A stretch of 64,000 nucleotides of DNA from Chloropicon primus (taxonomy: Eukaryota). Made by a program: the position numbers and the translations under genes. Under the pieces are notes generated by a model. The model was not told the DNA's origin and did not search any database. It was given only the letters and a program-made list of their open reading frames with translations. Where the stretch lies: NCBI GenBank assembly GCA_023205875.1, contig CP060773.1, positions 186,001 through 250,000 on the forward strand, written 5' to 3'. Each line of letters starts with the position of its first letter. The stretch's first letter is position 1. Below, piece by piece: positions 1 to 62,055 of this stretch.

Positions 1-211
1 GATGCGCCAGCCTCGTCGGAAGCTCCTCGTGCAGGAACTGGGCGCTCAGGAGCATCTGCCGGTTCACCGGGTTCTGCCCGAAGTCCATCATGTACTTCAA
101 ACTCACCCCCTTCTGCTTCTTCTTGCTCAGCTGCTTGATATCCTGCAACACGCTTTGTGGGATAACATCAGCAAGCCTCTTGACGGCTCCCCTCGCCGCT
201 GCTGCCGCCAT
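1..211 (-). CDS. PDK: Pyruvate dehydrogenase kinase, 5' part (runs off left edge)
   Basis: Manual translation from ATG 211: MAAAARGAVKRLADVIPQSVLQDIKQLSKKKQKGVSLKYMMDFGQNPVNRQMLLSAQFLHEELPTRLAH, matching the plant PDK N-terminus (GVSLxYMMxFG...SAQFLHxELPxR). Not in the ORF track. Confidence 0.9.
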   Translation of the reverse strand, partial: MAAAAARGAVKRLADVIPQSVLQDIKQLSKKKQKGVSLKYMMDFGQNPVNRQMLLSAQFLHEELPTRLAH

Positions 212-346
212 CACGACGGTCCTCGCCCTCTCCTCTGCCTCTCTCTCTCCGGAACACACAGAAACCTCCCTTCACCCAAACCTCTGACCTCCTCGCTTCT
301 ATCCTTCTCTGCCGTCCTTCCCTCTCTGTCTCTCGCCTCACGACGC

Positions 347-668
347 CAAACCAAGCTTGCGACCCACCAATCGAAAGAACGCGAGACAAAGCTTCGTCTA
401 GTACTCTCCTCTTCCCCTCTCGTTGCCGTTCCCGTCCTCACCGTCCTCGATAAGGTGGCTCAATAGGGTACTTCCTCCTTCACTTTCTGGAACAAAAGTC
501 GATGCCTCGACCAATCCGAGCACCAAATGGGTCAAGTGAGGGCTCGTTGGAAAGATCTCGAGAAGCTCTTTCGTCCAGTACCCTCCTCTTGTCCTTCAAT
601 CCTCGTCCACGCCCCCTGCGTCCTCCCTTGTCCGCCGCCTTTCGTGGAGGATGCACAGCGTGATCCAC
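347..668. repeat. Dispersed intergenic repeat family A, copy 1
   Basis: Closely similar direct copy at ~55785-56110 and a diverged inverted copy at ~4790-4990. Each lies upstream of a gene in the same relative orientation (PDK, ferredoxin, SBDS). Confidence 0.9.
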
Positions 669-719
669 AACGTGTTTTTGATTCTCTCGTGGCGCGCGAG
701 ACAAAAAGGAGGAAGATCC

Positions 720-1075
720 ACCGAGGAGGGGAAAGAACGAGATAGATGGCGAGAACGAGAGTGTGAGAGGGAAAGACGACAACGCATCGCGATAGAACAT
801 CTCTTTATCTTTCGAACGAGCCCTCACTCGACTCGTTTGACAACCGGAGTGGTCGCCAACTTTGGTCATCAAGGCATTGGGCAGAGCTTCAGGAGCAGGA
901 GTGGCGTGGCTTTGCGACGCAGTGGAGGGCGAGGGAGGTGGATCCGGAGGGCGAGGGCGTTACGGAGCGAAGCGTTGACTCGATATCTTTCGATTGGTGG
1001 GGCGCACGACCGGTTTCTCTCCCGGAACAAGGGTTTGCTTGAGTTGTGAAGGCACGAGAGAGGACACGGCAGAGG
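720..1075. repeat. Dispersed intergenic repeat family B, copy 1
   Basis: Near-identical direct copy at ~33808-34170 and inverted copy at ~29545-29831. Confidence 0.92.
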
Positions 1076-1199
1076 GATGACGCTCGAGGTTCCGGCCAAG
1101 GCGGAGGAAGGTAGGACGAGGGGAGGGAGTGGAGGAACAGATGCGGTGGTTTCGTTTCATCACGATCAGACGGGCTTATCTTGGCCACCTTGACTGAGG

Positions 1200-1943
1200 A
1201 TGAGGATGCTGTGGAGATGCAAACCACACATCCACGGCTTTCGTCCCGAGGACCAGGAGGAGAGTGCAGCAGGCAGACACACGTTTGGTCCGTCCTCGGG
1301 ACGGAAGCCGTGGCGTTGCCTTGCACGTCTGATCGTGATGAAACTGAACCTGCGAAGTGTCGTATTTGGTTCACCGTACGGTGCGGAGGGATCGCACACT
1401 CTCTGCTCAAACTGTTCAGAAGAAGACTGACGCGCGCGAGAACGCCGCCTTGGCTTCCTCGTTCCCTTTTGCTCTTTGCTCTTCGACCCGGAAGCCTTGC
1501 GGAGCAAGATGAAGGAAATCGCTCGACAGAACTGTGACGGCGTCATTCGGGACTTCGTGGAGTGCTCCAAGGAGACGGGCATCGCAGTGATGTGGAGCTG
1601 CCGAGAGCACCTCAAGCTCATGAACGCTTGTGTCAGCAAGTAGTAAGTCCCTTGGAAGAAAGCGGGAGGGGAAGGAAGGGAGGGCGCCGTCCCCTCGCTG
1701 CCTCTCGTTCGCACGTTGCTCGTTTTTGCCCGTCATTCGAGCACGGGAGAACTCGTGTGCGTTCTCGTACTGACAACACAATTCCTTTCGCTCCTCGCGC
1801 GTTCGCCACGCGGGTTACGCACGTGTCCTTCCTCGTGCGTTCGCAGCACCACCGACGAGGTGCTTGAAGGCATAAAGAAGCAGTGGATCGATGCCGGGAG
1901 ACCGTCACGCATCGACTGGAGGCCAAACGTGCCCAAAATCTAG
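1200..1943 (+). CDS. CMC1: CMC1-like twin-CX9C cytochrome c oxidase assembly protein (spliced; 5' exon uncertain)
   Basis: EALRSKMKEIARQNCDGVIRDFVECSKETGIAVMWSCREHLKLMNACVSK, then GTAAGT intron (~1643-1846), then TTDEVLEGIKKQW...PKI*. CX9C-CX9C spacing is present. Confidence 0.75.
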
Positions 1944-2640
1944 CACCCCTAACGACTCTGTAAAACATATCGACGACGTGATACAAATACGCCAAAACAA
2001 AAGCTCACAAGCGCACGACGACGTGTCAGGGCAGGGTCACAAGGGAGGATCGCGTCCTCCCACCCTCCCTCTCCTTCCCTCTCCCTCTCTCCCTCTCTCT
2101 CTCTCTCTCTGTGTGTGTGATTGTCTAATCAACTCCATCACCTCCATCACCTCCTCCTCCTCCTCCTCCTGCATCGATGGGACACCTCCAGGAGGTTCAG
2201 TCGACAAAGAGCAAGGAGGTTCAGTCGACATACTTGAACGCAAAACGATGGAGGAACGGCCGAAGCAATGATCCACCATCCCCTGACCCAATCCCCTTCA
2301 ACCTGTCCCCGCTTTTGTGGCGTCCTGTGTGCCATGGCCACCATGGACACAGTGAGGGGACATCCTTGGACTTGGTCTCCAACCTGTTGGAGCAGTTGAG
2401 GGGACTTGAAGGAAGAGAGTCGTATGTAGTCCCACAGGAGTAAAAGCAATGATGGTCCAGAACTTTGAGCATTCTGGTCGACCATCAAGGCAGCACCTTG
2501 CAGGAGTAGACCACCAAGCTTGGCACACACCACCACCACAAGCAACAAGCAGCAACTCAGCAGAGAGGGATAGAGTTAGAGTTATCCTAACTCCTCCGTT
2601 GGCTTGCAGTAGGAGGAAGGAAAGGCTTTGCTCTTCCAGG

Positions 2641-2678
<38 letters not shown>

Positions 2679-2728
2679 GCCTTGCATTGCCAAGTGGTGA
2701 GGCAAGAGGGAGACAGAGGGATTGAGAT

Positions 2729-3882
2729 ATGGACAACGAGGTTGCTGTGTCCCAGGGGGTTGGAGCTGGTGCTCCCTGTGTTGATGTGGAGGAGGATCGG
2801 TGCTGGATCTGTCATGAAGTTGGAGTGGAAGGCAGAGAGCTTCATGTCCACTGCAAGTGTCATTCGCTGAAGGCACACGACGATTGCATTGCCCACTGGC
2901 AGCTCCGTAACGCCGGAACGGATGCCGAAATGAAGTACGTTTGATCATCTTTGTCGATCCTCGTCCATCGATGTGTGCTGACTGATGGGACCTCTCTCTC
3001 TCTCTGTGCAGGTGCAGGCTGTGCTCAATGAAGCTGCCGGACTGGAAGGACACGGCTTACCTGAACGGGACGAGATCCCTTGCCAAGGTGGTGACTTTGG
3101 CCGTCCAAGGTACGCTAGCTAGGTCCAGTCCCCTTCCCTCATGCTCATCATCGTCATCGTCGTCGTTCTGACTGACCAACCGCTTGTGTGTGTGTGCAGT
3201 GAACGGGGTGACCAAGTACATGAAAGTGAAGCTTGGCGGAGAGGAGAAGGCCGAAGAGTTCAAGCAAAAGTTGATCAGAGCTTTTAACTTGCCTTGTACG
3301 ACTCACTTGGACATCGACTTCAGCGTCTCGAACCCTTTCACTGCCGAAGACGTCTTGAAACTCAATGGCATCGGCTCGTACTCAGCTGCTATCCACTGCG
3401 GTGCCCTGATTGACCGAGAGGAGGACGAGGACGAGAAGGACGAGGATCCAGGCCAAGGCAACAGTTCCAAAGGTAACTCCAGCCGAAGGACGAGAACGAG
3501 AACGAGTCCCCTCCCCCTCCAAGGGGAGGAGGAGGACAGCGATACTGAATACAGCAGCAACACCGATACGGACCTGAACACCGACTCTGAAGCCGAGAGC
3601 GAGGAACCCAACTTGAGGGTCTCTTGCATCGACCGGTACGAGAGGTTGAGGCAGAGGAGACGGGAGAGGATCTTGCGAGAGCAACAGGAGCTTCGACAGG
3701 ACTCTCGAATCACGCAAGAGATTTTGAGCGAAGCCGAGGACAGTGACAGCGAAGGTCAAGTCGACTTGGAGCACATTCCAACATCTTCCAGCCAAGCTTT
3801 TCTGTCCTGCATGAACCTCCTGTGCCCCAAGCTTCGAAGGAAGAGAAGGAGAGTCGTCGGCATCGCCCCGCTCACCATCTAA
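2729..3882 (+). CDS. RING-variant (RINGv/C4HC3) zinc-finger protein, spliced
   Basis: CWIC...HCKC...AHDDCIAHW, intron, CRLC; second intron ~3110-3199; acidic low-complexity C-terminus. Upstream exons are possible. Confidence 0.7.
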
Positions 3883-4028
3883 ACCAACAACCTCTTCCAC
3901 CGTCGTCGTCGTCGTCGTGTTTGTTCATAAAAAATATCCTAAAAGACTTCGAGTCATTAAGTCACACGCAGTTTGTTATGTATTGTTTGCTCCACTTGAA
4001 TCACGCACGACCCACCCAGTGGAGCAAG

Positions 4029-4389
4029 TTACTGCCTGGAAGCTTCTGCCTCCTTCACCCTCTTCTTATAGTCCTTGTACTGGCACAACTCATAGACGTG
4101 CCTCTCGTGCTCGCACCTTCACCAACGAGAAGAATGGACAGAAAGCAAGGGAGAGAAAGAGTCAGTGACACGAGCGTTACCACCTCCGGGCGTTACGATC
4201 GCCAAACCTCCTGCACTTCACAAGAAGAAGAAGAAAGAAGAAGAAAGAAGAGACTTACTTCCATGGCAAGTAGTGCTCCTTCTTCCTGCATTCATTCAAT
4301 GGAATCAGCAAGTGAGCGCAAGTGTCTCGCCAAACTTGAGGAACCTGCGCGTCATCACATGCCTCCTTCGTCGTAGCGAAGCCAGACAT
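4029..4389 (-). CDS. NDUFB7: NADH dehydrogenase 1 beta subcomplex subunit 7 (B18)
   Basis: Exon 1 MSGFATTKEACDDAQVPQVWRDTCAHLLIPLNECRKKEHYLPWK, intron 4117-4258 (GTAAGT..AG), exon 2 CEHERHVYELCQYKDYKKRVKEAEASRQ*. Confidence 0.92.
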
Positions 4390-4496
4390 CCCGCAAAACT
4401 TCTTTCTTTTTCTTCCGCTCCTCGTTTGCTCTTTCCATTGCCAAGGATTGAGAAACATGAAAACCAATCGATTCAGTTGAGAAGAACTTCGTCACA

Positions 4497-4790
4497 AGAG
4501 CGCCATCTTCTTCGTGCGACCACTCATTGGAAAGCTCGCGAGATGCTCTTTCCATCAATTCCTCCCTCGTCCTCTCCCTCTCTTGTTGCCGTCCTCGTTG
4601 TCGCGCTGAAGTTCACTCACTCACCTCGGTGCTCCTCCACCCGTCGCCTCGTGGAAAAGAAAGTGAGACCCCATCGGGCGGCGAGGAACACCGAGGTGAG
4701 TTCAGGGAGCCAGGGGACGACGAGGACGGGGGCCAGAGCGGACGAGGGAGGTATTGATGGAAAGAGCGTCTCGCGAGCTTTCCAATGATC
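4497..4790. repeat. Repeat family C (MITE-like, long imperfect terminal inverted repeats), copy 1
   Basis: CATTGGAAAGCTCGCGAGATGCTCTTTCCATCAATTCCTCCCTCGTCC at the left is inverted at ~4740-4787. Further copies at ~25892-26210 (inverted) and ~52455-52775. Confidence 0.88.
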
Positions 4791-5243
4791 CCTCGCTCGA
4801 CTCGTTTGGTGCTCGGATGGGTCGAGGGATTGACTGGGAGGACTGGATGTGAAGCAGAAACCACCCGAATGCCTAGTCTTATTGAGGACGGTGAAGAAAG
4901 TGACGGCCATGAGAGGGGAAGACGATCGCACGGAACGAAGAGTTGTCTCGCGATGTTCCGATTGGTGGGGCGCAAGCTTGGTTTGGCGTCTTGAGTCGAG
5001 AGGCAGAGAGGGAAAAGGAAGCGAGAAGCTACAGAACTTTTAGGCAGAGGCATTGGGCGTTCACTATAGTGGGTGGACTTGACGTCTGTGTACCTCAAAA
5101 GCTGACCATCTTTTGGTTCCATTAGGATTCACTGGTGTGCGGAGTGACGGAGGCGGTGGTATGACCGAGGACCGTCGGCGTTGAAGGTTGCCACCGGAGG
5201 GAGAAGGAGCGTCGAAAGGGGGGGGTTTCTTTGACGGAGGAGC

Positions 5244-6434
5244 ATGAGTCGAGCTGTGAAGCAGCCCGTGGGGCAGAAGCGGCTGACAAACATCGCCATC
5301 GTAAGGTACAAGACGCACGGGATACGTTTCGAGATCGCTTGCTACAAGAACAAAGTGTTTGACTGGAGGAGCGGCAGCGAGCAGGACCTTGATGAAGTGC
5401 TCCAGACGGACCAGGTGTTCTCCAACGTGTCCAAGGGAATCATGGCAAAGGAGAAGGACCTGAAGAAGGCTTTTGGCAAAAAGAAATCCATGGAAGAGGT
5501 CTGCAAGGAGATCCTGGCCAAGGGGGAGCTCCAGGTGAGCGACAGGGAGAGAGCCCTCCAGTTGGACTCGAGGCTTCGAGATGTGGCCAGCATCATCGTC
5601 GAGAAGTGTGTGGACAGCATCACGAAGAAGCCATTCCCTCACGCTCTCGTCGAGAGGGCGTTGAAGGATCCAAAAATCAGATTCATACCGGATAACCGAA
5701 AGTCCGCGAAGCAGCAGATGCTTGAGATCGTGCCCAAGCTGCAGGAACACAAAGTGCTCAACATCGAAAGAGCGCGGATGAGAGTCCAGCTGACGGTCCA
5801 CAGCAAGGGCATGAAGCAAAAGGTCTTGGAGCAGCTTCAGGCGAAGCCTCTCGCGGACACGTGCCAAGTGGAAAGGGAGAAGGAGGAGGAGGGGGAGGAG
5901 GAGGGAGCAGGAGCATCGAGCTCCGACGACGGGGGTCTGTACACGTACTGCTGCGTGCTGAAGATCGAGCCGGGGTCCTTCAGAGCCATCGATTCGATCG
6001 TGAGGGGGAATACGGCCAAGGAAAACATGGGAAGGCTCGAGGTTCTTGATTTAGCCGTGCACAACGACTCTTCTGCTGCGAATGGAAATGGCAGGGAAGC
6101 TGGTGGTAGTGCTGGTGCCCCGGGAGGCACCACCAGCAGCCCCGCCTCGTTGAAGTCCTTAGGGAAAGGAATCCAATCGATGGGGCTGACCGGGGACCAA
6201 ACAATTGCAGTGGCCTCGGCCGCTACTGCCGTGGTCGGTCGGTTCAAGTGCAATACCTGCCAAGTGGGTTTCGACGACTCCAAGCAGCACCGGGAGCACT
6301 TCAAATCGGATTGGCACAGGATCAACCTGAAAAGAAAGTCCCAAAAGCTGCCCATCTTGTCTCAGGAAGAGTGCGAGGCGATCGCGCTGATGGAGTCATC
6401 CGCGGCGTCAGACCTGGACGATTTTGCGTTCTAA
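5244..6434 (+). CDS. SBDS: Ribosome maturation factor SBDS with C-terminal C2H2 zinc finger
   Basis: QPVGQKRLTNIAIVRYK..RFEIACYKNKV..DLDEVLQ..VFSNVSKG; C-terminal CNTC..HFKSDWHRINLKRK as in plant SBDS. Confidence 0.96.
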   Translation: MSRAVKQPVGQKRLTNIAIVRYKTHGIRFEIACYKNKVFDWRSGSEQDLDEVLQTDQVFSNVSKGIMAKEKDLKKAFGKKKSMEEVCKEILAKGELQVSDRERALQLDSRLRDVASIIVEKCVDSITKKPFPHALVERALKDPKIRFIPDNRKSAKQQMLEIVPKLQEHKVLNIERARMRVQLTVHSKGMKQKVLEQLQAKPLADTCQVEREKEEEGEEEGAGASSSDDGGLYTYCCVLKIEPGSFRAIDSIVRGNTAKENMGRLEVLDLAVHNDSSAANGNGREAGGSAGAPGGTTSSPASLKSLGKGIQSMGLTGDQTIAVASAATAVVGRFKCNTCQVGFDDSKQHREHFKSDWHRINLKRKSQKLPILSQEECEAIALMESSAASDLDDFAF

Positions 6435-6489
6435 AGGCTTGTTTCACACTAAAAACTTCATTCATTTAAACGATACTACTGCTCCATCC

Positions 6490-9400: not shown

Positions 9401-9627
9401 GACCTCTTCACCGAAATCGGTGAAGAAATACGGACGTCATCCCGACCATGGACCTGGATCCCAGCACGTGCCCAACACGTTCTCATGCTTCTCGTGACCC
9501 CGTGGCGTGACGTTTTCGAAGAATTGCGTACCCATGGGTGCGTTACGCGACCATTGAAAGGCGTTACGATCGAACGGGCACGCATCCTGGACCCCGGATC
9601 CGTCATGCTCGTCGTCGTCGTCGTCAT
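6490..9627 (-). CDS. clpB: ClpB/HSP100 chaperone with organellar transit peptide
   Basis: Two AAA+ modules (GEPGVGKT, GPTGVGKT), RIDMSEY, GAPPGYVG, coiled-coil middle domain, S/R-rich N-terminal extension. First ATG at 9627; the ORF-track start at 9756 is not ATG. Confidence 0.96.
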   Translation of the reverse strand: MTTTTTSMTDPGSRMRARSIVTPFNGRVTHPWVRNSSKTSRHGVTRSMRTCWARAGIQVHGRDDVRISSPISVKRSYVSRGRFCDSSSTLSCPVLSRRRRTVVMRANDDDGSSWSSSSSSSSKRRIQQKNFTEKAWDAVVGAPEVAKEYKHQVVETEHLMKALLEDRKGLARRVVRECGGQVETLEGNLERFLMSQPKVETQDESSLGQVLGKNLERCMAVAEQIRLDMDDSYVSVEHLVLALARDTKRFGYQGLRNCGVQDCSSKEKMMEHVRNVRGPAHKKVESRQAEDTYESLLKYGRDLTHEAREGKLDPVIGRDEEIRRCVHILSRRSKNNPVLIGEPGVGKTAVIEALAQRVVAGDVPASLQDRQIFALDMGSLLAGAKFRGEFEDRLKGVIDEVKASDGKVVLFIDEMHTLVGAGASEGAMDAGNLLKPQLARGELRCIGATTLNEYRKYIEKDAALERRFQQVYVDAPTVEDTISILRGLRERYELHHGVRISDGALVEAAVMSDRYISDRFLPDKAIDLMDEAAAGLKMEITSKPQALDRITRKVMQLEMERLSLERENSGQGGSKKNGRANNRLDAIENDLRRLKTKESELESQWMEEKGLIEEVQSLKEEIDRVQIEITQAERDYDLNKAAELKYGTLLNLQKDLDEAEARAMDDTGSSHNLLREEVNAADICNVISKWTGIPVNKLQQSEREKLLTLGDQLHERVIGQDEAVTAVADAIQRSRAGLADPRRPTASFFFMGPTGVGKTELAKALAGLMFESEDALVRIDMSEYMEKHTVSRLIGAPPGYVGHEEGGQLTEAIRRRPYSVVLFDEMEKAHGEVFNILLQVLDDGRITDSQGRLVDFKNCVIIMTSNVGSSHILEDFEEHGNMDSLGQERREKRKEKMMQSVHQQFRPEFINRVDDFIVFEPLTEKQIENIVLLQLERLKDRLKDRKISISLSPEALEYLARKGYDPVFGARPVKRVMRQEIENPLAKLLLKGSFEEGSDISIKLESRSLDEEAIDGNTFADAKLVFENAAATEESFELSAAGARE

Positions 9628-9715
9628 GCTCGTCGTCGTCGTCGACCTTCTCTCTCTCTCTCTCTCTCGCTCTCTCGCCTCGTCTCGTCGCCTCGTGGAG
9701 ATTCGAACCCGGAAC

Positions 9716-12304: not shown

Positions 12305-12400
12305 ACAGAAACAGATCGCCTGCACCACTTTTCTTTAATCCATCATTTCATTCATTCCAAAGTTCGTCCCACCGTGCGCGGTCGACACCCTCACTCTCAT

Positions 12401-12735
12401 CACTCACCCTCATCATTACCCTCATCATCCTCTCTGCAGGGAACAAAAGTGAGCAAGTGAGGGCTCATTGGAAAGATGAAGAGACAATGCGTCCATCCCT
12501 CAATCCTTCTGTTGCCCTTTTCCGCTGTCCTCGTCTTGATCCCCTCCACCACCACCATCAACACCACTCACCCTCATCATTACCCTCATCATCCTCTCTG
12601 TAGGGAACAAAAGTGAGCAAGTGAGGGCTCATTGGAAAGAGAAAGAGATAATGCGTCCATCCCTCAATCCTTCTGTTGCCCTTTCCCCTTGCCCTCGTCT
12701 TGATCCCCTCCACCACCACCACCACTCCCCACCCT
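12401..12735. repeat. Tandem duplication of a ~164-bp unit (repeat family F)
   Basis: Two adjacent copies of ...GGAACAAAAGTGAGCAAGTGAGGGCTCATTGGAAAGA..GAGA.AATGCGTCCATCCCTC...; related tandem pair at ~14947-15230. Confidence 0.9.
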
Positions 12736-13042
12736 CCTCCACCCAAGATCTGCAAAAGGGAGTTTAAAACAAATTTAGAATTTTCAAAAGCGATCCTCAG
12801 ACAGCAGCAGCAGAGAACACGAAGGAGGCGAAGGTGAGTGTTGTCGACGAGGAGGGGGACGACGACGGGAGGCGACAGGGACAGGGAAGGACCCTCGCGT
12901 CTTCCTCCTCTCGTCCTCTTTCGAATGACCCCCTGGTCGAAGTGATCGAGACACTGACACAGCGATCCCGTCTGCTTTTCCTTCCATCAGCGACAAGAAC
13001 AGAGAAGACAGAGACAGTGACAGTGACAGAGAGAGAGAGACT

Positions 13043-14886: not shown

Positions 14887-14946
14887 TCATTCTTCAATCA
14901 CAAAAAAATCTTCACAAAAATCCATCGCCTGGAAGCCTCCTCCTCG

Positions 14947-15230
14947 CCAAGTGAGGGCTCATTGGAAAGAGGAAGAGACGATGCGTCCATCCCTCTGTCT
15001 CCCTCCTCCTCTCCCTCCCCTCACCTGCCACCATCACCCCCATCATCACCAGCACCAACACCAACACCCTCATTACCCTCATCATCCTCTCTCTCTGTAG
15101 GAAACAAAAGTGAGCAAGTGATGGCTCATTGGAAAGAGGAAGAGACGATGCGTCCATCCCTCTGTCTCCCTCCTCCTCTCCCTCCCCTCACCCGCCACCA
15201 TCACCCCCATCATCCCCAGCACCACCCCTT
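14947..15230. repeat. Tandem duplication of a ~167-bp unit (repeat family F)
   Basis: Two copies of CAAGTGA.GGCTCATTGGAAAGAGGAAGAGACGATGCGTCCATCCCTCTGTCTCCCTCCTCCTCTCC... Confidence 0.9.
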
Positions 15231-19600: not shown

Positions 19601-20680
19601 CAAAGCTTGGCAGCAGGGGGAAGTGAGACAAGCTTCGGGAATGAAAGCAGAGCTCCGTGTTGCTATGATAATAATTCGATTCCGTTGCTGCACGTCTATC
19701 ACCACATCGTATAGGTCTGCAGAGGGAGCGTGCGATTTCATCATAGCTCTTCTTTCTCTTCCGAATGCAGTGGACCACGGCATGGCATGCCCTCGGTCCT
19801 TCCCACCTCAAGGTTTTCCTCCACGAAGCTTACCGTCGCGTGTCACCACGGACGCCAAAATTTTCGTGCGAACACTCGTTGGAAAGATCGAAAGAAGGTC
19901 TTTCGAATAAAACTGACCTCCCAACCTTCCACTCTCGTAATCGAGCGCTCTCAGGCCGCGAAACACGCCGACGTACCTTTGGCTCCCCTGGCCGCCGCCA
20001 TCCGACTGCATTTCTCCATTTCTTCAAATTTGAAGTTCAGCAGAGGGAAATGGAAATTGAGTGTAAACCTAATTTCCCGTTGGAAAAAAATTTTCGGAGT
20101 CAGAGCCAAAGGTGAAGTGCCAGGGGGAGGAGGTGAACACGAAAGGTGAGTTTCAGGACGGAAGTTGAGGAGGACGGAGGTAAACACTTCGCAAGAGAGT
20201 TACATCATTGGAACAAGCGTCTCGTCTTCTTTCCAATGATGTGCTTCATGCGTGGTTTGGTGAAGTTTGGATACTAACTTTGTCCGCATGAAGTGTCTCG
20301 CTTGGGACCCAGAAGTGAAACACAGAAGGTGAGTTTCAGGAAGGATGTTGAGGGTGACGGAGGGGAACACTTCCCGTAAAGGTGGCATCATCGGACGCAC
20401 CTTGCTCTCCTCTTTCGATTGGTGTACCGCATGCCACGAGTTCTGAAGTTTCGGACCCACCTTTGGTGCTGACAAGACAGTCTCCTGCCTCCTCTTGCAG
20501 AGAGACAGACCCAACAGGGGGACAGGTGCTGGCCACAGGAGGAGAGAGGGTGAAGCAGGAGGCGATGCCGTGGACCTTCTGAAGGGGAAGTCAATTCTAG
20601 AGAGCGGAGCCTGGCCATTGAAGACGAACGGAGAGAGACAGAGAGAGAGACAGAGAGAGAGGGGAAGGTGACCACCAAAG

Positions 20681-21367: not shown

Positions 21368-21865
21368 GACCCACGATAACCGACGACGATAACCGACGAC
21401 GACGAGGAGGACGACGACGACGACGGTCCAACACAACACAGCACACAAAAGTAAAAAGTTATAATGCACCTAACCTAAAAGCAAGGAAGAAGAGGACGGT
21501 GAATGGTGGTGAGTGAGCGAGACGCAGGGCACACAGGAGTAGTAGGATGGATGGATGGATGGATGCATTGTCTCTTCCTCTTTCCAAACAACCAAGCCAC
21601 TCCTCCACTTGCATCCATGCATTCCCTAGAGACAGAGACAGAGACAGAGGACAGAGACAGAAGCTGTTAATGATGGATGGATGGTGATGGTGGTGGTGGT
21701 GGTGGTGGTGATTGCCCATGCCAGGCTTCCATCTTTCCTTTCCTCTCCTCTTGTCTCTCCCGCCTGCTTCCGCTTCCTTCCAAGAGAGACAGAGGAGCCC
21801 ATCGGTGAGAGAGCAGACAGAAGCAAGAGGAGCACCACCGAGCCATCCATCCACCTCCTGCTGCC

Positions 21866-21900
<35 letters not shown>

Positions 21901-22020
21901 TGAAAGGATGAAGAGACACGTGGAGGAGGAAGAGGCTTCGTAATTGACTTTTTTGGTTCACCTCCTCTTCATCTTCTCATCTTCTCAGCTTCATCTTCAG
22001 CTTCCGTTTGACTGTGTGGC

Positions 22021-22467
22021 ATGATGAAGTCTGGTGGTGATGGGAACGTGAAGCGAGGGTTCTCGAGCCGCTTGAGTTCGATGAAGTTCATGCAACGTGG
22101 CAGAGGGAGTGACAAGTCGAAGAAGGATGCCAGTGACGTGAAGAGGGGCAAGGAATGCAGCAGTACCGTGATGGACAAGGGCAAGGAGAAGGAGAAGCTG
22201 AGGGTTGTGGTGGAATCGGATCCTTTGCCACGAGGGAGGACAACCGGTCGGTTAAGTTTTGGTAGCAAGAAGAAGACCAAGGAGATGGATGATGGCTCCC
22301 CTGATGCTAATGTTAAGGAACCTCTTGGTGCTGAGGTCAAGAACCCAACGTATGATGAAGGGGAGCAAGACAGGAGCAAGGGCAAGAGGAAAGCAGAGAG
22401 GAGTTTCATGAAACCTGCAGGAGCAGGAGACGTGAAAAAGTTCACGAAACGTTCTAAGAAAGTTTAG
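22021..22467 (+). CDS. MPP6: M-phase phosphoprotein 6-like exosome cofactor
   Basis: SSRLSSMKFMQR and GRLSFGS motifs in a small basic protein. Confidence 0.65.
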   Translation: MMKSGGDGNVKRGFSSRLSSMKFMQRGRGSDKSKKDASDVKRGKECSSTVMDKGKEKEKLRVVVESDPLPRGRTTGRLSFGSKKKTKEMDDGSPDANVKEPLGAEVKNPTYDEGEQDRSKGKRKAERSFMKPAGAGDVKKFTKRSKKV

Positions 22468-22591
22468 ATCCATCGTGCCAGGGAAACAAAAACACTTCTC
22501 TAACAGTGCAATTGCAAATTCTTTTTAAAGCGGTGGGCTGCTGGCCTTGGCTGCTGTTCACTTTCACTGGTTCACTGGTTCCTATGGCGCT

Positions 22592-23712
22592 TCACTTGCC
22601 ATAAGGCAGCGTGTCCATGGAAGAATCAAAGGGGACGCTGGAGTTGGGAGAACCCACGAACGGATCTGCTGGAGGGCTAGGAGCGCTCAGCAGGGGTGAG
22701 GTCGTGGGAGCTTGCGTGCTCGGGGGTGGTATCTCGTCCTCCAACTGGATGAGAGGTGGAGGTTCGAGAGCCTCGATGCTATCGAGGTGGTCACCTCCCT
22801 CAGTGGGAGGGGCTCCATCGTTCGGCTGGGGAGCACTCGACTGAGGCTGGCTGCCACCTTCCGAAGCTTTCTTGTACTCGCCCAAGCACGAGTCGAGCAT
22901 ATCCTTTGCTTCCAAGGCGTCTGCGAGGGCGGACTCGGACGCGGCTTGATCTCCGCCGATGCCTTCGATCTGGTTGCGAATGGACCCCCTGAGCTGGCTG
23001 TTGAGCATCTCAGCCTTCTGGACAAGGTCTTGCATCTGGGCGGCCATCGCAGGGTCCTGCGAACAGGGGAAGCGGAAGGAGGTGCACGAGCAGCGGAGCC
23101 CTCCGGCGTCAGCAAGCGAGAAGCCAGTCAGTCCCTCTCTTCGTCTTCGACTTTACCTTGTCACCGCAGCCCGACTGGAAAGCGATGGTCTCCCACAGAA
23201 GCTCCGCAGCCTCCCTCGCCAGCAGCGTCGTCTGCACCATCATCTCAGCCTGGCCGACGACGACAAGCAGAGGAAGAAACTCTTCACGTCAGTTCAAGCG
23301 GTGACACAACAAACAAAGGGAAGGGAAGGGAAGGGAAGGAGACCACCAAAAAGTGTTTCTCTCTTACCTCAGAAGGAACTTCCGCCATCCCAGGCACCAC
23401 TCCACTCGTCCTGGGAACCGGAGCGACATAGTTCGCGGAACGGTGGGAACTCGAGTCCTGTCCAATCGTCGTCCCATCACCCTCTTCGGAAAGCAAAGAC
23501 TCGTTCAAGTTGTTGTACGCTCCAGCGTGAGACATGTCTCCCCTCCCTTGACCGGTCAACACCCTCTTCGCTTTCTCTCCGAAAGCGCTCAACCTCTCGG
23601 ACAACTTGCTCATCTCTTGCGCTGCTCTCGTTCTGATCCTCGTCGCTGCGCTCTCTCTCTCACGGAAACCTAACTCCGCCGACCTCATGTGGTAGTCATC
23701 CGCCGCCATCAT
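22592..23712 (-). CDS. Hypothetical protein with GAT-like helical domain, 3 exons
   Basis: Spliced reading AREAAELLWETI..MQDLVQKAEMLNSQLRGSI..ESALADALEAKDMLDSCLGEY resembles TOM1/GGA GAT domains. Introns ~23058-23156 and ~23283-23367. Confidence 0.5.
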
Positions 23713-24444
23713 CGCTTACGCTTACTCCTCTCCTCTCCTCTCCTCTGCTCTTCTCGTTCGCCACGGCCAACACTCTCACTGCTGCATCAAGAAGACACGA
23801 AAGGCTTCCTCGTCAGTCCTTCGCTCCTCCCTTACGCCATTCCCGTCCATTCGCGACGTGGATGGTATCATTCGAAAGAGAAAGAAGAGACGCTTCCGTC
23901 GATCTCACCCTCGCTTGGTATTTCCCCCTCTTTTGTCTCACCTAACCTCGTTTGTTTGCGTCCTGTCGCCCCCTCGCGCGGCCCTTTGGTCTCGTAACGG
24001 AAGACCAGCCCCCTTCCCTGGAGAGGAACTTCATACGACACTTGAAGATGAGAAGATGCATGAGGAGGAGGAGGAAGTGGATGGTAATGGAGGAGAGGGA
24101 GAGGATGATCGGGGGGTGGTAGGCAGTTTCACGATCTTGTTGATTCCTCTTCTTTGCTCTCTTCATTCTCTTTCCAACGAACCATCACTTGCTGGGGACA
24201 CCTGAGGAGAGGAGAGGAAAGGATGCATGAGGAGGATTATGGAATGGATGGATGGAGAGGGACTGAGTTGATCCTCGCCTGGTGACGGGTGGGATGCCAC
24301 ACTCCTCGCTCACCTGATCCTTGCTCCTTGAGAAGCTCTAAAATAATAATAATAAAACGGAAACCTTCTTCTTCTTATAATGAGTCGTCGTCGGTCGGTC
24401 GTCTTCATCATCGTCGCCTTCCACGAGGAGGCCTCGTTCCAGCC

Positions 24445-28364: not shown

Positions 28365-29588
28365 TCAATCGATGAGGTGGCTCACGTCCGCCGTCCCAAG
28401 CTTGCCGCTGTAACTCCCGTTCCACACCTGCTTGGCGAACGTCTCGTTGGGAAGAATGATGCTGAGCATGTAGAGCTTCTCGGCAGCGTCAGGATTGACG
28501 ATGGAATGAACGTTCTTCGGCTTCACGAGAAGCGTGTCGCCCTCCGCACCCGTGACTGGCTCGTCGCTCTGATTCAGGTACAGATCCGCCCTTCCCGAAA
28601 GCACGATGAACAGCTCGTAGGCCTCGTCATGCAGGTGCCTTGGTATCACGCCCTGTGGATCCAAGATCTCGATGCTGCACGTGAAAGGGGTGCAATCCCG
28701 GAAAGGGTCGAAGACCGGAGCTATCCTGTTGTTCATGCTCGGCAATTGAAACGTCAGCAGCTCGGCCGTCCTCCGCAACCTGGAGCTCAGCAGGCAGCTT
28801 TCCGTTTCCTGCTGCTTGAGCTTGATTTGCGCCGGAACGTCCATGGAGTTCCTCCTGTCCACCGGAGAAGAAGATCGCCTGTGATCCATCGACCAGGTCT
28901 TGCTTCCCCCTCCGGCCCCTTGGGCGGCAATCACACCCTTGTGCGCCGCAAGTGAGACCGGGACGGATATGCTCAACATGACCATCCCTTCCTTCCCCCC
29001 GCCCCCCCGCGATTCTCCCCCCCTCGTCTCTATAGCGTAAGGCACCCTCGGAGCTATCGCAAAGATGTCCCCGGACTCGAGCTCCACCACGTCGCTGACT
29101 TTTGTCGACTCCGTCCCGAAGGACAAGTGGCCCAGCCGCCCGCTGCCGGAGAGGATGTAATACACGTGGTAGCAGTCCACTTCCACCCTCACCCTCGACC
29201 TCTCGGAGCTGGCGGACGCCTCCGACCCTCCCAAGCCAGCTTCATCTGCAACGAGCTCGAGCTCCACGCCAAAGGGGCTGCCTTCCCCGTCCCGACTCCG
29301 CTTCAACACGGTGTCGACGAGCCTTCCTCTGTCATCCTTCAACCACTTGTGGTCCTTACTCGAGAGCAACCGAGCCAAACTTCGCTCCGGCCTTTCGCAC
29401 ATCCTCTCCCTTCGGTCATTCCCCCCCGACCTCGCCCTCTGCGACTCTCTCCCCCGCCGCCTCACCGGCCTCGCACCACCGGGGACACCTAGGCTCCCCG
29501 TCGTCGTCGCCCTGCCACCCCTGTTGATCATCCTCAATGAATCAAGCACAAAACCAAAAAAGGGAGATAAACCGGTCGTGCTCCCCAC
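28365..29588 (-). CDS. Double cupin-domain protein
   Basis: VYYILSGSGR..LESGDIFAIAPRVPYAI and IPRHLHDEAYELFIVLSGRA..GDTLLVKPKNVHSIVN. The true start may be the ATG near 29531. Confidence 0.8.
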   Translation of the reverse strand: MGSTTGLSPFFGFVLDSLRMINRGGRATTTGSLGVPGGARPVRRRGRESQRARSGGNDRRERMCERPERSLARLLSSKDHKWLKDDRGRLVDTVLKRSRDGEGSPFGVELELVADEAGLGGSEASASSERSRVRVEVDCYHVYYILSGSGRLGHLSFGTESTKVSDVVELESGDIFAIAPRVPYAIETRGGESRGGGGKEGMVMLSISVPVSLAAHKGVIAAQGAGGGSKTWSMDHRRSSSPVDRRNSMDVPAQIKLKQQETESCLLSSRLRRTAELLTFQLPSMNNRIAPVFDPFRDCTPFTCSIEILDPQGVIPRHLHDEAYELFIVLSGRADLYLNQSDEPVTGAEGDTLLVKPKNVHSIVNPDAAEKLYMLSIILPNETFAKQVWNGSYSGKLGTADVSHLID

Positions 29589-29831
29589 TAATCGAAAGAT
29601 ATCGAGTCAATTCTTCGCTCCGTAACGCCCTCGCCCTCCGGATCCACCTCCCTCGCCCTCCACTGCGTCACAAAGTCACGCCACTCCTGCTCCTGAAGCT
29701 CTGCCCAATGCCTTGATGACCAAAGTTGGCGACCACTCCGGTTGCCAAACGAGTCGAGTGAGGGCTCGTTCGAAAGAGAAAGAGATGTTCTACCGCGATG
29801 CGTTGTCGTCTTTCCCTCTCACGCTCTCGTT
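29545..29831. repeat. Repeat family B, inverted copy truncated at 29831
   Basis: Reverse complement of ~754-1040. Similarity stops abruptly at 29831, next to the Fanzor 3' region. Confidence 0.9.
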
Positions 29832-32496: not shown

Positions 32497-32670
32497 TTCT
32501 GGTGGATTTCTCCCTTCCGCTGAACCATCATAACGGCCGAGCACGAGGGCGAACCAGGAGGAGGGAGAGAGAGAGAAGGGGGACGGGAGAGCGCGGAGGA
32601 GGAAGAGGGAGGCGGAGGACCGGACAGAAGGAAGCGTCGTCTCGTGCTCTTTCGAAAGAGCCCTCGCTCG
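32497..32670. repeat. Repeat family E
   Basis: Reverse complement of ~58335-58503 (TGGTGGATTTCTCCCTTCCGCTGAACCATCATAACGGCCGAGCACGAGGGCGAACCAGGAGG...); partly present again at 40051-40190. Confidence 0.85.
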
Positions 32671-33710: not shown

Positions 33711-33807
33711 CCAAGACAATGTCTCACCAACCTGTCATCGACTTTCCTTTCCTGGTTTCTCCTCCTTTCTCCTTTCTCCTCTCTGATCGATGCTGGGCAG
33801 CAGGTCG

Positions 33808-34170
33808 ACCGAGGAGGGGAAAGAACGAGAACGAGATAGATGGCGAGAACGAGAGTGTGAGAAGGAAAGACGACAACGCATCGCGGTAGAACATCTCTTT
33901 ATCTTTCGAACGAGCCCTCACTCGACTCGTTTGGCAACCGGAGTGGTCGCCAACTTTGGTCATCAAGGCATTGGGCAGAGCTTCAGGAGCAGGAGTGGCG
34001 TGACTTTGCGACGCAGTGGAGGGCGAGGGAGGTGAATCCGGAGGGCGAGGGCGCTACAGAGCGAAGCGTTGACTCGATATCTTTCGATTGGTGGGGCGCA
34101 CGACCGGTTTCTCTCCCGGAACAAGGGTTTGCTTGAGTTGTGAAGGCACGAGAGAGGACACGGCAAAGGG
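33808..34170. repeat. Repeat family B, direct copy
   Basis: Near-identical to 720-1075. Confidence 0.92.
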
Positions 34171-34219
34171 ACGTGGAGGAGCCAGGAGGGCAGAGAGCCA
34201 AGAGGTTTTGGGCGTGGTG

Positions 34220-39818: not shown

Positions 39819-40050
39819 TTAGCGGGCAGTCGGAGTGGAGGCTTGAGCTTGCTTCGAAATCATTTGGAAAGAAAGTAAAAATAGTGATAGTAACAGGATA
39901 GATCGATTCGATAGAAAACGCGGGCTCGCTTGTGGGAAGCACTAGCACGTCACCTCGATTGGACGGAGACTGATCCTTCACCAAGAAGACAACGTTGTCT
40001 CACGAGCTAGACCTTTGCTTTCCCCGTCTCCTCATGCGTCATCATGAATG

Positions 40051-40630
40051 ATAACGGCCGAGCACGAGGGCGAACCAGGAGGAGGGAGAGAGAGAGAAGG
40101 GGGACGGGAGAGCGCGGAGGAGGAAGAGGGAAGCGGAGGACCGGTCAGAAGGAAGCGTCGTCTCGTGCTCTTTCGAAAGAGCCCTCGCTCGAAGAGAACG
40201 ACCCGGTGGTGAGGATCTGAGGAGCACGGGCGTGAAGATGGCGGTGACAGGGGGAGCGAGCAAGAGGCAGAGGACGGAGGGATGCGCTGGAGGTGCTTCC
40301 CGAGTGGGCGTGGTTCCTGGTCTTGAAGCAGCTGGACGATTACGACCACCTTGCTTTTGGGGTTGACCTGCAGGACGTTCCTCGAGGCGGTGACGAAGGC
40401 GACGAGCCCCGAGGAGAAGAAGAAGGCTCGCCTGAGGACGGACCTGTCGCAAGAGAAGCCGCCTTGCCCTTGGGACCGGTGGACTTGTACGTACGCAGCT
40501 TCAGGGGGTCACCTTGACATTCTGCAGTAGGCTCGAAGCCAGAATCCGCCTTGCCCTTGGAACCCAGTGGAATGCAGATCCGCAGCGAATCGTCACCCGA
40601 AAGTCCTCAAGTGGATCCAGGAGAACTCTT
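40051..40630 (+). pseudogene. Internally deleted duplicate of the ankyrin pseudogene
   Basis: 40051-40458 is a near-identical 408-bp copy of 32530-32937, joined directly to degenerate ankyrin repeats ending ...GTGGATCCAGGAGAACTCTT as at 33708. Confidence 0.88.
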
Positions 40631-46764: not shown

Positions 46765-47882
46765 CTTGACGGACCGGGATATGGATGTTCTTGGCTCTTC
46801 TCTTCTCCAGCAAAAGCTTGACTCAGATCACAACACAGATGATCGATCGGATCTCTCGTCGTCGTGTTCTCCGTTTGAACTCCGCACGAAAAAAAAAAAC
46901 GAAAAGAGCGAGGACGTCGGCCGTTACGACAACTGCTGCTGGTCCACGGGAGCGAGGCGTTACACCGCGACGCGTTCGAGCAAACTACAGAACACGAGTG
47001 ATGATCCCAAGACAAAAACAAACAAGCAAAACTTCCCTTTCAGTTCCCTCATTCCAAGAACCTCTCGTCATTCGCTTCGAGTAACACGTCGTTCGAAAGG
47101 TCGCGAGACAATGCATCCATCGGTGACCCCCTCCGCTTCCCCGTCTCTCCCCCCTCTCCCCCCTCCTCGCCTCAAACTCACCTGGATCAGGCGAAAACCA
47201 AAGGAGGAAAAAAAAAACAACGTCTCAGCCTCTCAATTCCTCAATTCCTCACGAAACCTTTCGAGCGACACGTCGTTCGAAAGTTCGAGACGTAACGCAT
47301 CCGATGATGATTCGTAACGCCTCTATTGCTCTCGTCCGTCGCCGCCCTTGTCGTCCGAAAAGGGCCTACTCACCTCTCCGGTTTTTCGACTTCGGTTTTG
47401 ATATTTTTTCTCTCTCTCTCCTTCCCAAAATCGTAAAGGTGAACGAAGGAGAGGAGAGGAGAGGAGAGGACGAAGTTTGGCGGTCACCAAGGCAAGGGGA
47501 GGGTGGATACTTGCCAAGATAAACCAACTCATCGAAACTAGAGCTCACTATCTTTCGAAAGAGCCCTCACTCGACTCGGTTTACCCCCTGGTTGATCGAG
47601 AAAGGTGGTGCAGAAAGCCTCTGTGAGTGTCAGTGTCCGTGAGTGTTGGAAAGGAGTCCACAAAGTTGTGGACGGTCAAGGAAAGAGCGAGCGTTGAGAG
47701 GGTCGTGAGCCAACCAACCAAAACGTGCGTCCCAAGATCTTTCCATCCACTGCTGGACTCGCTTGCTTTGTGCTCCGAAGCGAGTGGGCAACCCTTCCTA
47801 ACACGATACTGCAGCAGCAGCAGCAAAGTGTCCTCCTCCTGGCGAAGAGTTTGAGCCTTCTGTTCCTCAAGCAGCAGCCGCA

Positions 47883-50559: not shown

Positions 50560-50589
50560 TCCTCTTCCTCGTGAAACAAACGACCCGTC

Positions 50590-50920
50590 AAACGAAAGAG
50601 CAAGAGACGAAGCTTCTCTCTCTGCAACTGTCCTCCCTTCCTCTCCCTTCCCCTCGCTCTCGTTCCCTCTGGACGGACAACTTCTCTCTCTCTCTCTCTC
50701 TGCCGTGTTCGATCGAAAGAGAAAGGAGATCAAATCCTATTCACTGGGTCAAAATCCTCGAGGCTGCACTCATTCGAAAGAGAAAGAGACGAAGCTTCTT
50801 CCTATGCACTTCTCCTCCCTCTCTGTCTCCTGCCCTCGCTCTCGTTCCCTCTGGACGGAACAACTTCTCTCTCTCTCTCTCTCTCTCTCTGCCGTGTGTT
50901 CTGATCGAAAGGGAAAGGAC
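50590..50920. repeat. Repeat family D (two tandem ~185-bp units)
   Basis: Two units GAAAGAG.AAGAGACGAAGCTTCT...CCCTCGCTCTCGTTCCCTCTGGACGGA..; reverse complement at ~56225-56460. Confidence 0.88.
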
Positions 50921-51329
50921 AAAGCATAACGGGCGAGCAGGATGGTGATGGTGATGGTGATGGGTGATGGTGATGGTGGGATTGGAAGGGGGGACTAGGG
51001 GGAAGAGGAAGGGCAGTGATGCAGGCGGAAGCATCGGGTCACGATCTTTCCATAGAGCATTCAATTGTTGAGAATGAAGCTCTGGTGGGGAAGTTTTGAT
51101 GTGGTGAGGTGGCGTGCACGGCGTACCCGCTTGCGAGAGGATTACTACCAAACAACAAACAAAACTATTCATCAAAATGATCAAAAGCCCCTCTCCCCTC
51201 TTTGGCAAGGGCGAGAGCAATCAGCTTTGACTCTTTACACACAAAAAAAAAACCTCTACACTCTCGAGTCGTAGATCCTCACCCGAGGATAGGATGAAAC
51301 CGTCGCCTGTCGTCGTCGTTGCGTCGTCC

Positions 51330-52198: not shown

Positions 52199-52454
52199 CT
52201 TCTTCTTCTTCGTCATCATCAACATCAACAATCTGTCATGAAAAAAACAAAAACAAAACAAAAACTTCATCAGCTTCTCTCTTCCAGCCTCAACACGACG
52301 GCGTGCGTTACGAGTGACCACTCGTTGGAAAGAGGAGGACGTAACGGCAGCGGTGGCGTGAACCAAACCAGTCGTGACACTTTATATTTGCATCCTCTCG
52401 TCCACAACGCGTCACTGGCTCCAAACACCTCCATCCCTTTCTAAAATCCTCATC

Positions 52455-52995
52455 AGAGCGCCATCTTCTTCGTGCGACCACTCATTGGAAAGATCGCGAG
52501 ACACTCTTTCCATCAATTCCTCCCTCGTCCTCTCCCTCTCTTGTTGCCGTCCTCGTTGTCGCGCTGAAGTTCACTCACTCACCTCGGTGCTCCTCCACCC
52601 GTCGCCTCGTGGAAAAGAAAGTGAGACCCCATCGGGCGGCGAGGAACACCGAGGTGAGTTCAGGGAGCCAGGGGACGACGAGGACGGGGGCCAGAGCGGA
52701 CGAGGGAGGTATTGATGGAAAGAGCGGCTCGCGAGCTTTCCAATGAGCATCCGCACGAAAAAGATGGCGCTCTGACGAAGATTTGGGACGACTGAACGTG
52801 TTGTTTTCCGCCGTTTTGGGTTCCATGGGTGCCGCCTTTGCAGGTGAGTGAGCGAGGACACGGGGGCCAGAGCGGATGAGGAAGGCATCGATGGAAAGAT
52901 CATCTCGCTCTCTTTCGTTTGAGCATCCGCAGGAAGGAGATGGCGCCCTGACGAGGGATTGAAACTGAATTGAAGGGTTTTGTTTGCATCGTTTT
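52455..52995. repeat. Composite repeat (family C plus arm) in the CREG/DUF2045 divergent promoter
   Basis: ~75-bp imperfect TIRs AGAGCGCCATCTT.TTCGTGCG..CTCATTGGAAAG at 52455 and 52775; a third arm extends to 52995. Confidence 0.88.
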
Positions 52996-53194
52996 TTTCT
53001 CTTTCCTCTTGATCATGAACAAGGCAGTGAGGCACTTGGAGCTTGCCTCGGCGCGTGTTCGGATTCATTGTCAATCCAGGAAAGGCGAATCGTTTGTGTC
53101 CGAGTCGAGCGTTACTCTTCTTCCTTTGAGCGTTACGAGAATCGCGCTGGATGCCAAGGAGTTAGTGAGTTCGTTGCTGAGCTTGGTCATCCCT

Positions 53195-55545: not shown

Positions 55546-55784
55546 ACTGCCTTGAGCTGCCTCAGCCTACCAACCTAACTCGCTAACTGGTTGTGAGAGA
55601 CCAAAGGACAAGAGTTACAGATGGTGAGGAAGGTGATAAGGAAGACGATGAAGATGAGGAATCGCGTCAGTTACGTGAGCGAACGTCCACTCGTAACGCT
55701 CAACCAGCCGCCTTACCCTCAAATTTCTAGACGCGTCTAGAATGAATGTGACCCCAGCTCCAACGAACAAAACCAAACGAAACC

Positions 55785-56460
55785 CAAACCAAGCTTGCGA
55801 CCCACCAATCGAAAGAGCGCGAGCCAAAGCTTCGTCTAGTACCCTCCTCTTCCCCTCTCAATGCCGTTCCCGTCGTCACCGTCCTCTATAAGGTGGCTCA
55901 ATCGGGTACTTCCTCCTTCACTTTCTGGAACAAAAGTCCATGCCTCGACCAATCCGAGCACCAAATGGGTCAAGTGAGGGCTCGTTGGAAAGACCTCGAG
56001 GAGATCTTTCGTCCAGTACCCTCGTCTTGTCCTTAAATCCTCGTACCCGCCTCCTAAGACCTCCGCTTTCTCTTCGGTCTCGTCTCGTCTCCTTCTTCGT
56101 GGAGGATGCCACAAAACACTTGTGGCTGCGGAGAGCCCAGCGACCAGCAGGTGAGTGAAGCTCGAGACTTCGCGATGAATCTGAGGGCGAGGGACGAGAG
56201 AGGAAGGAAGGAGAGGTGTATAGAAAGAAGCATCGTCTCTTTCTCTTTCGAATGAGTGCAGCCTCGAGGATTTTGACCCAGTGAATAGGATTTGATCTCC
56301 TTTCTCTTTCGATCGAACACGGCAGAGAGAGAGAGAGAGAAGTTGTCCGTCCAGAGGGAACGAGAGCGAGGGGAAGGGAGAGGAAGGGAGGACAGTTGCA
56401 GAGAGAGAAGCTTTGTCTCTTGCTCTTTTGAATGAGTGCAGCCTCGAGGATTTTGACCAA
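55785..56460. repeat. Repeat family A copy plus family D inverted copy in a divergent promoter
   Basis: 55785-56110 matches 347-668; 56225-56460 matches the reverse complement of 50590-50800. Confidence 0.88.
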
Positions 56461-56537
56461 GTTTTGACCAAGTTTCGTGACAACTGAGAAGGATTGTTTG
56501 CCCAAAAGTCTGCAGGATTGCATCGGGTGTGGACGTG

Positions 56538-58319: not shown

Positions 58320-58580
58320 GGCGTCACGCGACGGCTCGTTCGAAAGAGCAAGAGATGACGCTTCCTTCTCTCCGGTTCTCCGTTGACCTGCTACCCCGCC
58401 GCGCGCGCTCCGTTCCTCCTTCTTTCTCTCTCTCTCCCTCCTCCTGGTTCGCCCTCGTGCTCGGCCGTTATGATGGTTCAGCGGAAGGGAGAAATCCACC
58501 AGAAGAGAAAAGAACAGAGAGGGGAGGAGGGAGGAAGGGAGAGAGGAGGAGGAAGAGGAGAGAGGAGGAGCTTACCATTA

Positions 58581-61093: not shown

Positions 61094-62055
61094 CTTCCCC
61101 CTCCTTCACACCTCGTGCCTCCTCTTACTGCAGTGCTTGCCTGTGGCACCAGGGCACCTCTTCGCTAAAGCTTGTGAACCGGTGACTCCTTCACCAGGAC
61201 GCCGTTCGCTTCGAGTGAAGGCTTGAAAGAAAGAGAAAGAGGCAAGAAAGACGAATCTGACTCCTCCTCTCTCCCCTCCCCTCGTCCTCGTCGCTTCTTT
61301 GTCCCTGGTACACTTTATCTCCCTCAGACCCCTTCAAGAAGGGGAAAGAACTTCGTGTCAGGTCAAACTTTCTCACCAGAGCGCCGTTTCCTTCAAGCGA
61401 CGGCTTATTCGAAAGATCAAGAGACGATCGTTTGGATCACGTCCTCACCTTTCGCCTCCCTTGCCGTCCCCGGCTTGGAATCGTCGACAAAGTCCTCCCC
61501 TTTCCCTGGTCCCAGAGTCAACGCCCTTGTCCTTGGGATGAATGCCCCGGGAAAATGAAAAAAATTTACTCTTGAAATTGGAATAAATTGGGTGGCGGAG
61601 AAGCGCAGAGAGCAGAAGAGGGTCGACGGTTTGTTGGAGGAAACGAGGGTCGACGGAGCGACAAGAGGACGAGGGAGAGAAAAAAGTACGAAACTAGATC
61701 TCAAAATCTTTCGAACGACCCCTTGCTTGACGAATTTGACAACCGGAGTCACCAGCATCATCGCGTCATCGGGGTCCTTTGTCCTTTGTGTCCTTTGTGA
61801 CCACTAGTTTGTCTGAACTCGTGAGAGACTTGTGGCGGTCGTGAAAGAGGCGAGGCGTTACGATACGCGGTAACGCTTGTCGAGATCTTTCGAACGACCC
61901 CTTGCTTAACGAATTTGACTACGGGATACATCCTTGGCGTCCGTTACAAGGTTCTGGTCCTGGGATTAAGGATCGACGACGAGAGGGGAGAGGAGCGAGG
62001 AAGTGAGAGGATCCAGGAGGAGCATTAGCATCACCATCACATCCGTGGAGCAACG

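Follow-up and report, generated by a model that had tools for sequence, protein, structure and literature searches.

Promoter cassettes shared by unrelated genes of Chloropicon primus are probably recent copies of an oriented promoter-flanking unit of about 177 bp

Inspection of a divergent promoter near the left end of a 64,000-nucleotide stretch of the Chloropicon primus genome (contig CP060773.1, positions 186,001 to 250,000; hereafter the window, from whose first letter all positions are counted) raises the question of how unrelated genes come to share nearly the same upstream DNA. The 5' part of a PDK/BCKDK-type kinase gene lies on the minus strand (1..211, start codon at 211, Pfam BCDHK_Adom3, 4e-8) and the CMC1 gene on the plus strand (1078..1944, Pfam Cmc1), with a first intron (1111–1494) marked by GT..AG joints in contigs of the read runs X3, X4 and X5. 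Between them stand two cassettes: A1 (346..626, plus strand), with two units anchored at 366 and 543, 177 bp apart and pointing to the centre, and B1 (714..1077, minus strand), with units at 820 and 998, which ends at the CMC1 start codon. The centre of the promoter, where A faces B, measures 87 bp (627..713) and is likely a nucleosome-free region that would hold the start sites; the inward motifs at 543 and 820 are 277 bp apart. The word TCGTGGA, a possible factor site judging from the letters, recurs in several promoter centres including those of A+B and A+D (641–655, 4640–4655, 9690–9700 and 56097–56110).

Self-BLAST of the window and pairwise alignments reveal cassettes that are near-identical (93–98%) between promoters of unrelated genes. 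The first-pass annotation had distinguished five such families, A to E, and all were recovered where it had placed them, at 86–98% identity, together with a diverged A copy (A') at 76%; the orientation of the cassette to its gene, which it had described as constant, is kept in all 10 gene–cassette pairs that it named. A1 matches A2 (55784..56064, plus strand, units 55804 and 55981, before a ferredoxin gene) at 93%, and A' occupies 4744–5014. B1 is 96% identical both to B2 (33802..34171, minus strand, units 33914 and 34092, before an FAD oxidoreductase gene) and to B3 (29562..29831, plus strand, units 29587 and 29765, before a cupin gene). C spans 4460–4788 in C1, with copies at 25919–26242 (95%) and 52447–52746 (98%), and is a whole two-armed bidirectional unit with self-inverted arms of 65–91 bp (87–89%). 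C2 (25665..26257) has three units and makes up the whole bidirectional promoter of an ARPC2/LSM gene pair; C3, together with a unit at 52321, forms that of CREG/DUF2045 (52321..52996), and similarity between the C2 region and 52448–52996 is 89% across 558 bp. D1 (units 50587 and 50769, a 182-bp tandem, before PGM3) lies with a back-side unit at 51057 in 50587..51057, and D2 (56183..56462, minus strand, units 56256 and 56436) precedes a DUF6816 gene; 50595–50843 and 56183–56428 are 94% identical. E1 (32497..32667, minus strand, unit 32660) precedes an ankyrin-like gene and matches E3 (58328..58504, plus strand, unit 58335, 16 bp from a start codon) at 86%, including 81 identical bp. The third E copy (E2, 40048..40458, minus strand, unit 40181) belongs to a 411-bp duplication, 99% identical to 32527–32937, which also takes in the beginning of the ankyrin-like gene. 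That gene (32717–33709) contains 87-bp repeats and seems to need frame changes, and its duplicate (40238–40640), which shares the 411 bp at 99%, is truncated. Pfam matches identify the PDK, CMC1, SBDS, cupin, FAD oxidoreductase, PGM3, DUF6816 and ankyrin genes, the Fer2 match of the ferredoxin gene being weak (E 0.008); the closest named relative of the SBDS protein is from Chloropicon laureae (62%).

The division into separate families could not be upheld. Every family is a variant of a single oriented unit, ~177 bp long, with a core motif of ~60 bp in which TC[AG]TT[CG]GAAAG is followed by GAGA and then by a degenerate CTTTC. A and reversed B are anciently related (76% across 66 bp). Trained on the window itself, a weight matrix of 60 bp gave 55 strand-hits, all scoring above 21, versus 0–1 above 12 per shuffle in 30 shuffles. 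Eight of these are mirror matches of palindromic cores, leaving 47 sites, whose motif positions serve as anchors. The core also occurs at genes without any family partner. Tandem 164-bp units at 12464 and 12628 (94% repeat) and a unit facing them at 12929 lie in 12398..12929 on the far side of a UBP6-like promoter, and tandem 167-bp units (97% repeat) occupy 14948..15224 on the plus strand, the one at 15125 being a chimera; the tandems of 12398–12724 and 14948–15224 are reversed relative to the next gene. Diverged units at 19875 (plus), 20240 and 20423 (both minus) lie in 19875..20434, with a 183-bp tandem and, in each, a splice-donor-like site at +94. The motif scan further yielded single units at 21591 (minus), 23867 (plus) and 24181 (minus) within 21546..24181, units without close partner at 47088, 47272 (both plus) and 47563 (minus) within 47088..47563, and four diverged units, two on either side of an A/T-rich centre, before a SufE–NadA gene (61222..61926).

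For the analysis of placement, 38 genes were defined from the sequence, open reading frames and Pfam, several starts being approximate and set from reading alone; the labels NDUFB7, GT and SRPBCC are our presumed assignments rather than Pfam matches. The genes (40.7 kb) contain none of the 47 sites. Divergent gaps hold 27 sites (in 9 of 11 gaps) and tandem gaps 20 (in 10 of 16), and the 10 convergent gaps hold none, although these total only 1.24 kb (P=0.08). No copy was found away from gene starts within the window, and units lie no more than about 560 bp from a start codon or promoter centre. Neighbours on the same strand are spaced 160–184 bp apart in 17 of 17 cases (176.6 ± 6.5 bp), and neighbours on opposite strands face inward in 11 of 11, at 266–365 bp. 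Layouts of 1+1, 2+1, 2+0 and 2+2 units all occur, and arms are found singly as well as in every combination. The gene side holds 40 sites, at the starts of 25 genes; the other 13 genes have no gene-side unit. A GC-rich block (34800–38200, 60–70%) contains four genes whose starts lack a motif unit. The remaining 7 of the 47 sites are on the far side of tandem promoters, one of which (19875) may serve an unannotated gene. Thus the orientation follows the promoter centre and not the gene, and the unit is a feature at the level of DNA; a rule tying orientation to the gene holds for the pairs named by the first-pass annotation but not in general. Unit 19875 points away from a stretch of ~3 kb (16700–19800) of lower GC (48–52%) without long open reading frame or annotatable gene, as if serving a minus-strand transcript.

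Read data cover positions 1–16800 of the window, a range outside which lie D, E, A2, B2, B3, C2 and C3, and the RNA and depth evidence applies within it. Runs X3 to X5 were judged to derive from RNA because they carry GT..AG joints without counterpart in the DNA run X1 and show near-zero depth at 2241–2800. A joint 4430–4625 with CT..AC ends, present in X3 and X4 and absent from X1 and X5, corresponds to removal in these RNA-like runs of a minus-strand GT..AG intron of 194 nt (4431..4624) from a 5' leader. The intron spans one unit (anchor 4523) and its donor is inside cassette C, so that the minus-strand transcript must start further inside C. On the other side contigs of X3, X4 and X5 run unspliced from 4851 through A' into SBDS, the exact starts not being given by the contigs. 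At least two units are therefore inside 5' leaders, one of them as a 194-nt intron, and the view of the cassettes as purely upstream modules does not hold, whereas their non-random placement does. Of the 47 sites, 14 have a donor-like site at +85 to +110 (6.6 when counted over 27 lineages, against a background of 0.024 per site), only one of the 14 being confirmed as spliced; it is lacking in the other 33, including all A, B and E units. At 25834, 47182 and 52846 an acceptor AG is immediately followed by a donor GTGAGT between tandem units, for which back-to-back leader introns of 175–196 nt with no exon between them, and recursive or alternative splicing, are predicted.

A spacing of ~177 bp is that of a nucleosome plus linker, and the units were examined for dinucleotide phasing after down-weighting related copies to 27 lineages and comparing periods of 6–16 bp. 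A/T-minus-G/C dinucleotides peak at 10.5 bp (range 10–10.75 bp), with 5.6 times the mean power over these periods; the phasing extends to the flanks outside the matrix, where none of 500 jittered controls reached the observed power. A 10-bp peak is absent from the core itself (-12 to +47). The units thus combine nucleosome-length spacing with ~10-bp dinucleotide phasing, as expected of positioning sequences, although the phasing could partly reflect common ancestry of the copies. The peaks, located between -68 and -18, agree with a dyad close to +6; the confirmed intron would then have its ends in the two linkers. Gene bodies in the window show no CG periodicity at 160–180 bp, and CG, ApT and A/T periodicity there lack a clear peak.

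Heterozygous indels published for C. primus (Supplementary Data 8 of PMC6731263, a table taken whole, with sequences beyond 400 letters available in part) show a related size preference. Among 73 indels of at least 100 bp, 25 measure 160–195 bp (mean 178), the equal bins to either side holding 7 and 8 (P=1.5e-4). A size of 330–390 bp is found in 7, versus 4 in both flanks together (P=0.04). The bins were chosen after inspection of the data. The exact core, searched as five short strings, is present in 12 rows (153, 171, 174, 177, 183, 184, 188, 192, 199, 274, 361 and 386 bp), and a 165-bp insertion resembles, by eye, the unit at 15059–15224. Core-bearing indels of unit size indicate that units are gained and lost between homologues. 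Of the 25 indels in the main peak only 7 contain the exact core, so the preference for this size may be a general property of the chromatin here. The passages of PMC6731263 available to us do not mention the single- and double-size peaks in its own table, and its main text gives no match to 'promoter'; its supplementary figures may describe repeats.

The manner of copying is recorded in the boundaries of the copies. Tandem duplicates of 164, 167, 180, 182 and 183 bp are present in separate lineages, and two units are chimeric. In the first, at 4789, the inner half is 98–100% identical to C, and the outer half shares 72% with A against 58% with C; the arrangement previously described as C+A is hence a C1/A' chimera (4460..5014) that is C up to 4788 and A-like past the motif, with A' in the SBDS leader. 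In the second, at 15125, the outer half resembles 12464/12628 (88–90%) and the inner half 14958 (98%). The switch point in both is the core motif. Swapping of modules between divergent promoters, as proposed by the first-pass annotation, is borne out to this extent. Homology ends vary from -79 to +8 on one side and from about +37 to +169 on the other, with no shared ends among the twelve copy pairs compared; flanking repeats (mostly 0–5 bp, one of 7 and one of 10 in a CCT run) resemble those of 300 random intervals and give no consistent target duplication. A patchwork of tracts whose ends vary within the shared homology is what gene conversion would be expected to leave. Of the 47 units, 25 have a half-partner at least 90% identical more than 1 kb away in the window. 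Of the two routes of spread suggested initially, conversion fits better than ordinary transposition, since ends differ between pairs and target duplications are absent. In X1 the single-copy depth is 123–145; position 405 reaches 262, with an extra contig carrying the A2 letter, position 840 in B 783, positions 884–908 in B 1180–2100, and the cores 4000–5000. Relative depth is thus ~2x for A, 4–16x for B (about 6x at 840, 9–16x at 884–908) and 30–40x for the core, contig depth not being copy number. If A had 2 and B 6–16 copies in ~19 Mb, co-occurrence within 64 kb would have P=0.003 (A) and 0.0001–0.001 (B), a hint that copies of the long type are not numerous and lie near one another. Tracts that are local, variable in extent and bounded by the motif agree better with repair from a nearby template than with cut-and-paste.

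A transposon reading of the same observations would derive the promoters from a MITE family in which each arm carries one or two transposase-binding motifs, the copies being co-opted, decayed and in some cases still mobile. The self-inverted arms of C, the old relationship between A and reversed B and the facing motif pairs agree with it, as does the TnpB-like gene within the window, and a TIR-type Fanzor element has been reported for C. primus (the accessible part of 10.1101/2023.08.09.552727 describes a Fanzor2). The precedent, and the nearest known case, is CERP2/CELE2 of Caenorhabditis (excerpts of 10.1101/2022.01.21.477252), where one motif family likewise stands inverted or in tandem at promoters of unrelated genes; its motifs, however, are 10–30 bp apart in defined MITEs with thousands of non-promoter pairs, whereas here the spacing is nucleosomal, ends are unfixed and the window shows no copy outside promoters. 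Terminal inverted repeats at fixed ends were not found, every pair of copies differing in its ends, and no target duplication was found; arms occur singly and in every combination, and units duplicate in tandem as monomers. We hold this origin of the present promoters to be doubtful, an old transposon origin of the units themselves being possible. Facing motif pairs are also known from Tc1-like IR/DR ends such as those of Sleeping Beauty, which carry two motif copies about 165–200 bp apart per facing arm; the units here lack both fixed ends and a TA duplication at the terminus. Alternatively, staggered breaks in promoters during local inversions or translocations could duplicate one or two nucleosomes of DNA at the junctions as by-products, without conversion of a standing promoter, and many pairs are in fact inverted (C1/C2, C2/C3, D1/D2, E1/E3, B1/B3 and A1/A', 4–55 kb apart). 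Direct pairs (A1/A2, B1/B2 and C1/C3) and the nested patchwork would require several such events, and the chimeras switch within the motif, which makes this explanation improbable.

Two further readings were considered. An Introner-like mobile intron inserting into 5'-leader linkers would account for the spliced 194-nt unit and for the excess of donor-like sites over the expected 0.024 per site, and Introners (in the portion of PMC9860276 available) are likewise repeated intron-forming units linked to nucleosome linkers. Those elements insert across genes with defined ends, whereas the present units are bound to promoters, are mostly donorless and are absent from genes, including coding-region introns; moreover, the ends of shared tracts do not coincide with splice sites, and A' is retained in the RNA contigs. 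We regard this as very improbable. That the motif forms a conserved hairpin in RNA, or that copies were selected for co-regulation, appears hardly credible. Some units are transcribed and the core has a partly palindromic sequence, but exact left half-sites occur in 45 of the 47 sites and exact, complementary right ones in only 12, Rfam gave no matches, both orientations relative to mRNA occur, and genes of one cassette family are functionally unrelated.

The cassettes are thus best read as recent copies of an oriented ~177-bp unit, flanking the majority of promoters in this alga, that is likely nucleosome-positioning and likely copied between nearby promoters by break repair starting in the core, a reading to which we assign a probability of roughly 0.58. 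On either side of a promoter the unit would position the first nucleosome or the first two, each unit wrapping one nucleosome whose dyad lies close to the core. When open promoter DNA breaks, repair would draw on the sister unit, with tandem gain or loss, or on the unit of another promoter tens of kb away by gene conversion or template switch, and would begin in the conserved core. Swaps would be tolerated because one unit can presumably substitute for another without upsetting the phasing. More tentatively, the units may be interchangeable one-nucleosome bricks, in which the core both sets the flanking nucleosomes and seeds recombination, so that leaders and promoter halves swap among unrelated neighbours and grow or shrink by whole nucleosomes, all without a transposase.

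Searches of the open-licence literature gave no description of this motif or unit, nor of nucleosome-sized indels in Chloropicon. The available parts of PMC12146615 describe green algal start sites flanked by nucleosome-linked A/T peaks (consecutive A/T peaks, CAPs), strongest among non-fungi in chlorophytes; its main text does not mention Chloropicon. CAPs resemble the present units in forming a periodic signal of nucleosome size to either side of the start site, but they are base-composition waves of about 150 bp, whereas here an oriented ~60-bp motif recurs every 177 bp in units near-identical between genes. Similarly, the accessible portion of PMC12633428 reports that 6mA marks the first two linkers of genes in Auxenochlorella, the same zone of one to two nucleosomes past the start site; the periodic 6mA is a chemical mark, and the present feature a copied sequence. 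The motif scan of viral contigs gave no match. A paired-motif scan gave two loci, neither matching the motif model. The one metagenome scanned gave two bacterial-looking loci, which match neither model nor window and were rejected as chance; the bacterial-looking contigs L001 and L002, chance matches to the pattern, overlap and carry secretion-system-like genes. The TnpB/Fanzor-like gene of the window (29890–32400, open reading frame 30172–32268 on the minus strand; Pfam Cas12f1-like_TNB, 8e-18, and HTH_OrfB_IS605) had no relative in a TnpB scan of the viral contigs. It lies between B3 and E1, as if inserted into the centre of a B+E divergent promoter, and three heterozygous insertions of 2.66–2.71 kb in Data 8 of PMC6731263 resemble it by eye.

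If the proposed reading is true, promoter nucleosome positions would be written in this alga as a discrete, findable motif and not as a diffuse base bias, and regulatory DNA would evolve through exchange between unrelated genes. It would then become testable in a small genome how far the sequence encodes +1/-1 nucleosome positioning and whether mutation size is governed by chromatin. Copied leaders would also confound promoter comparisons and short-read mapping in Chloropicon.
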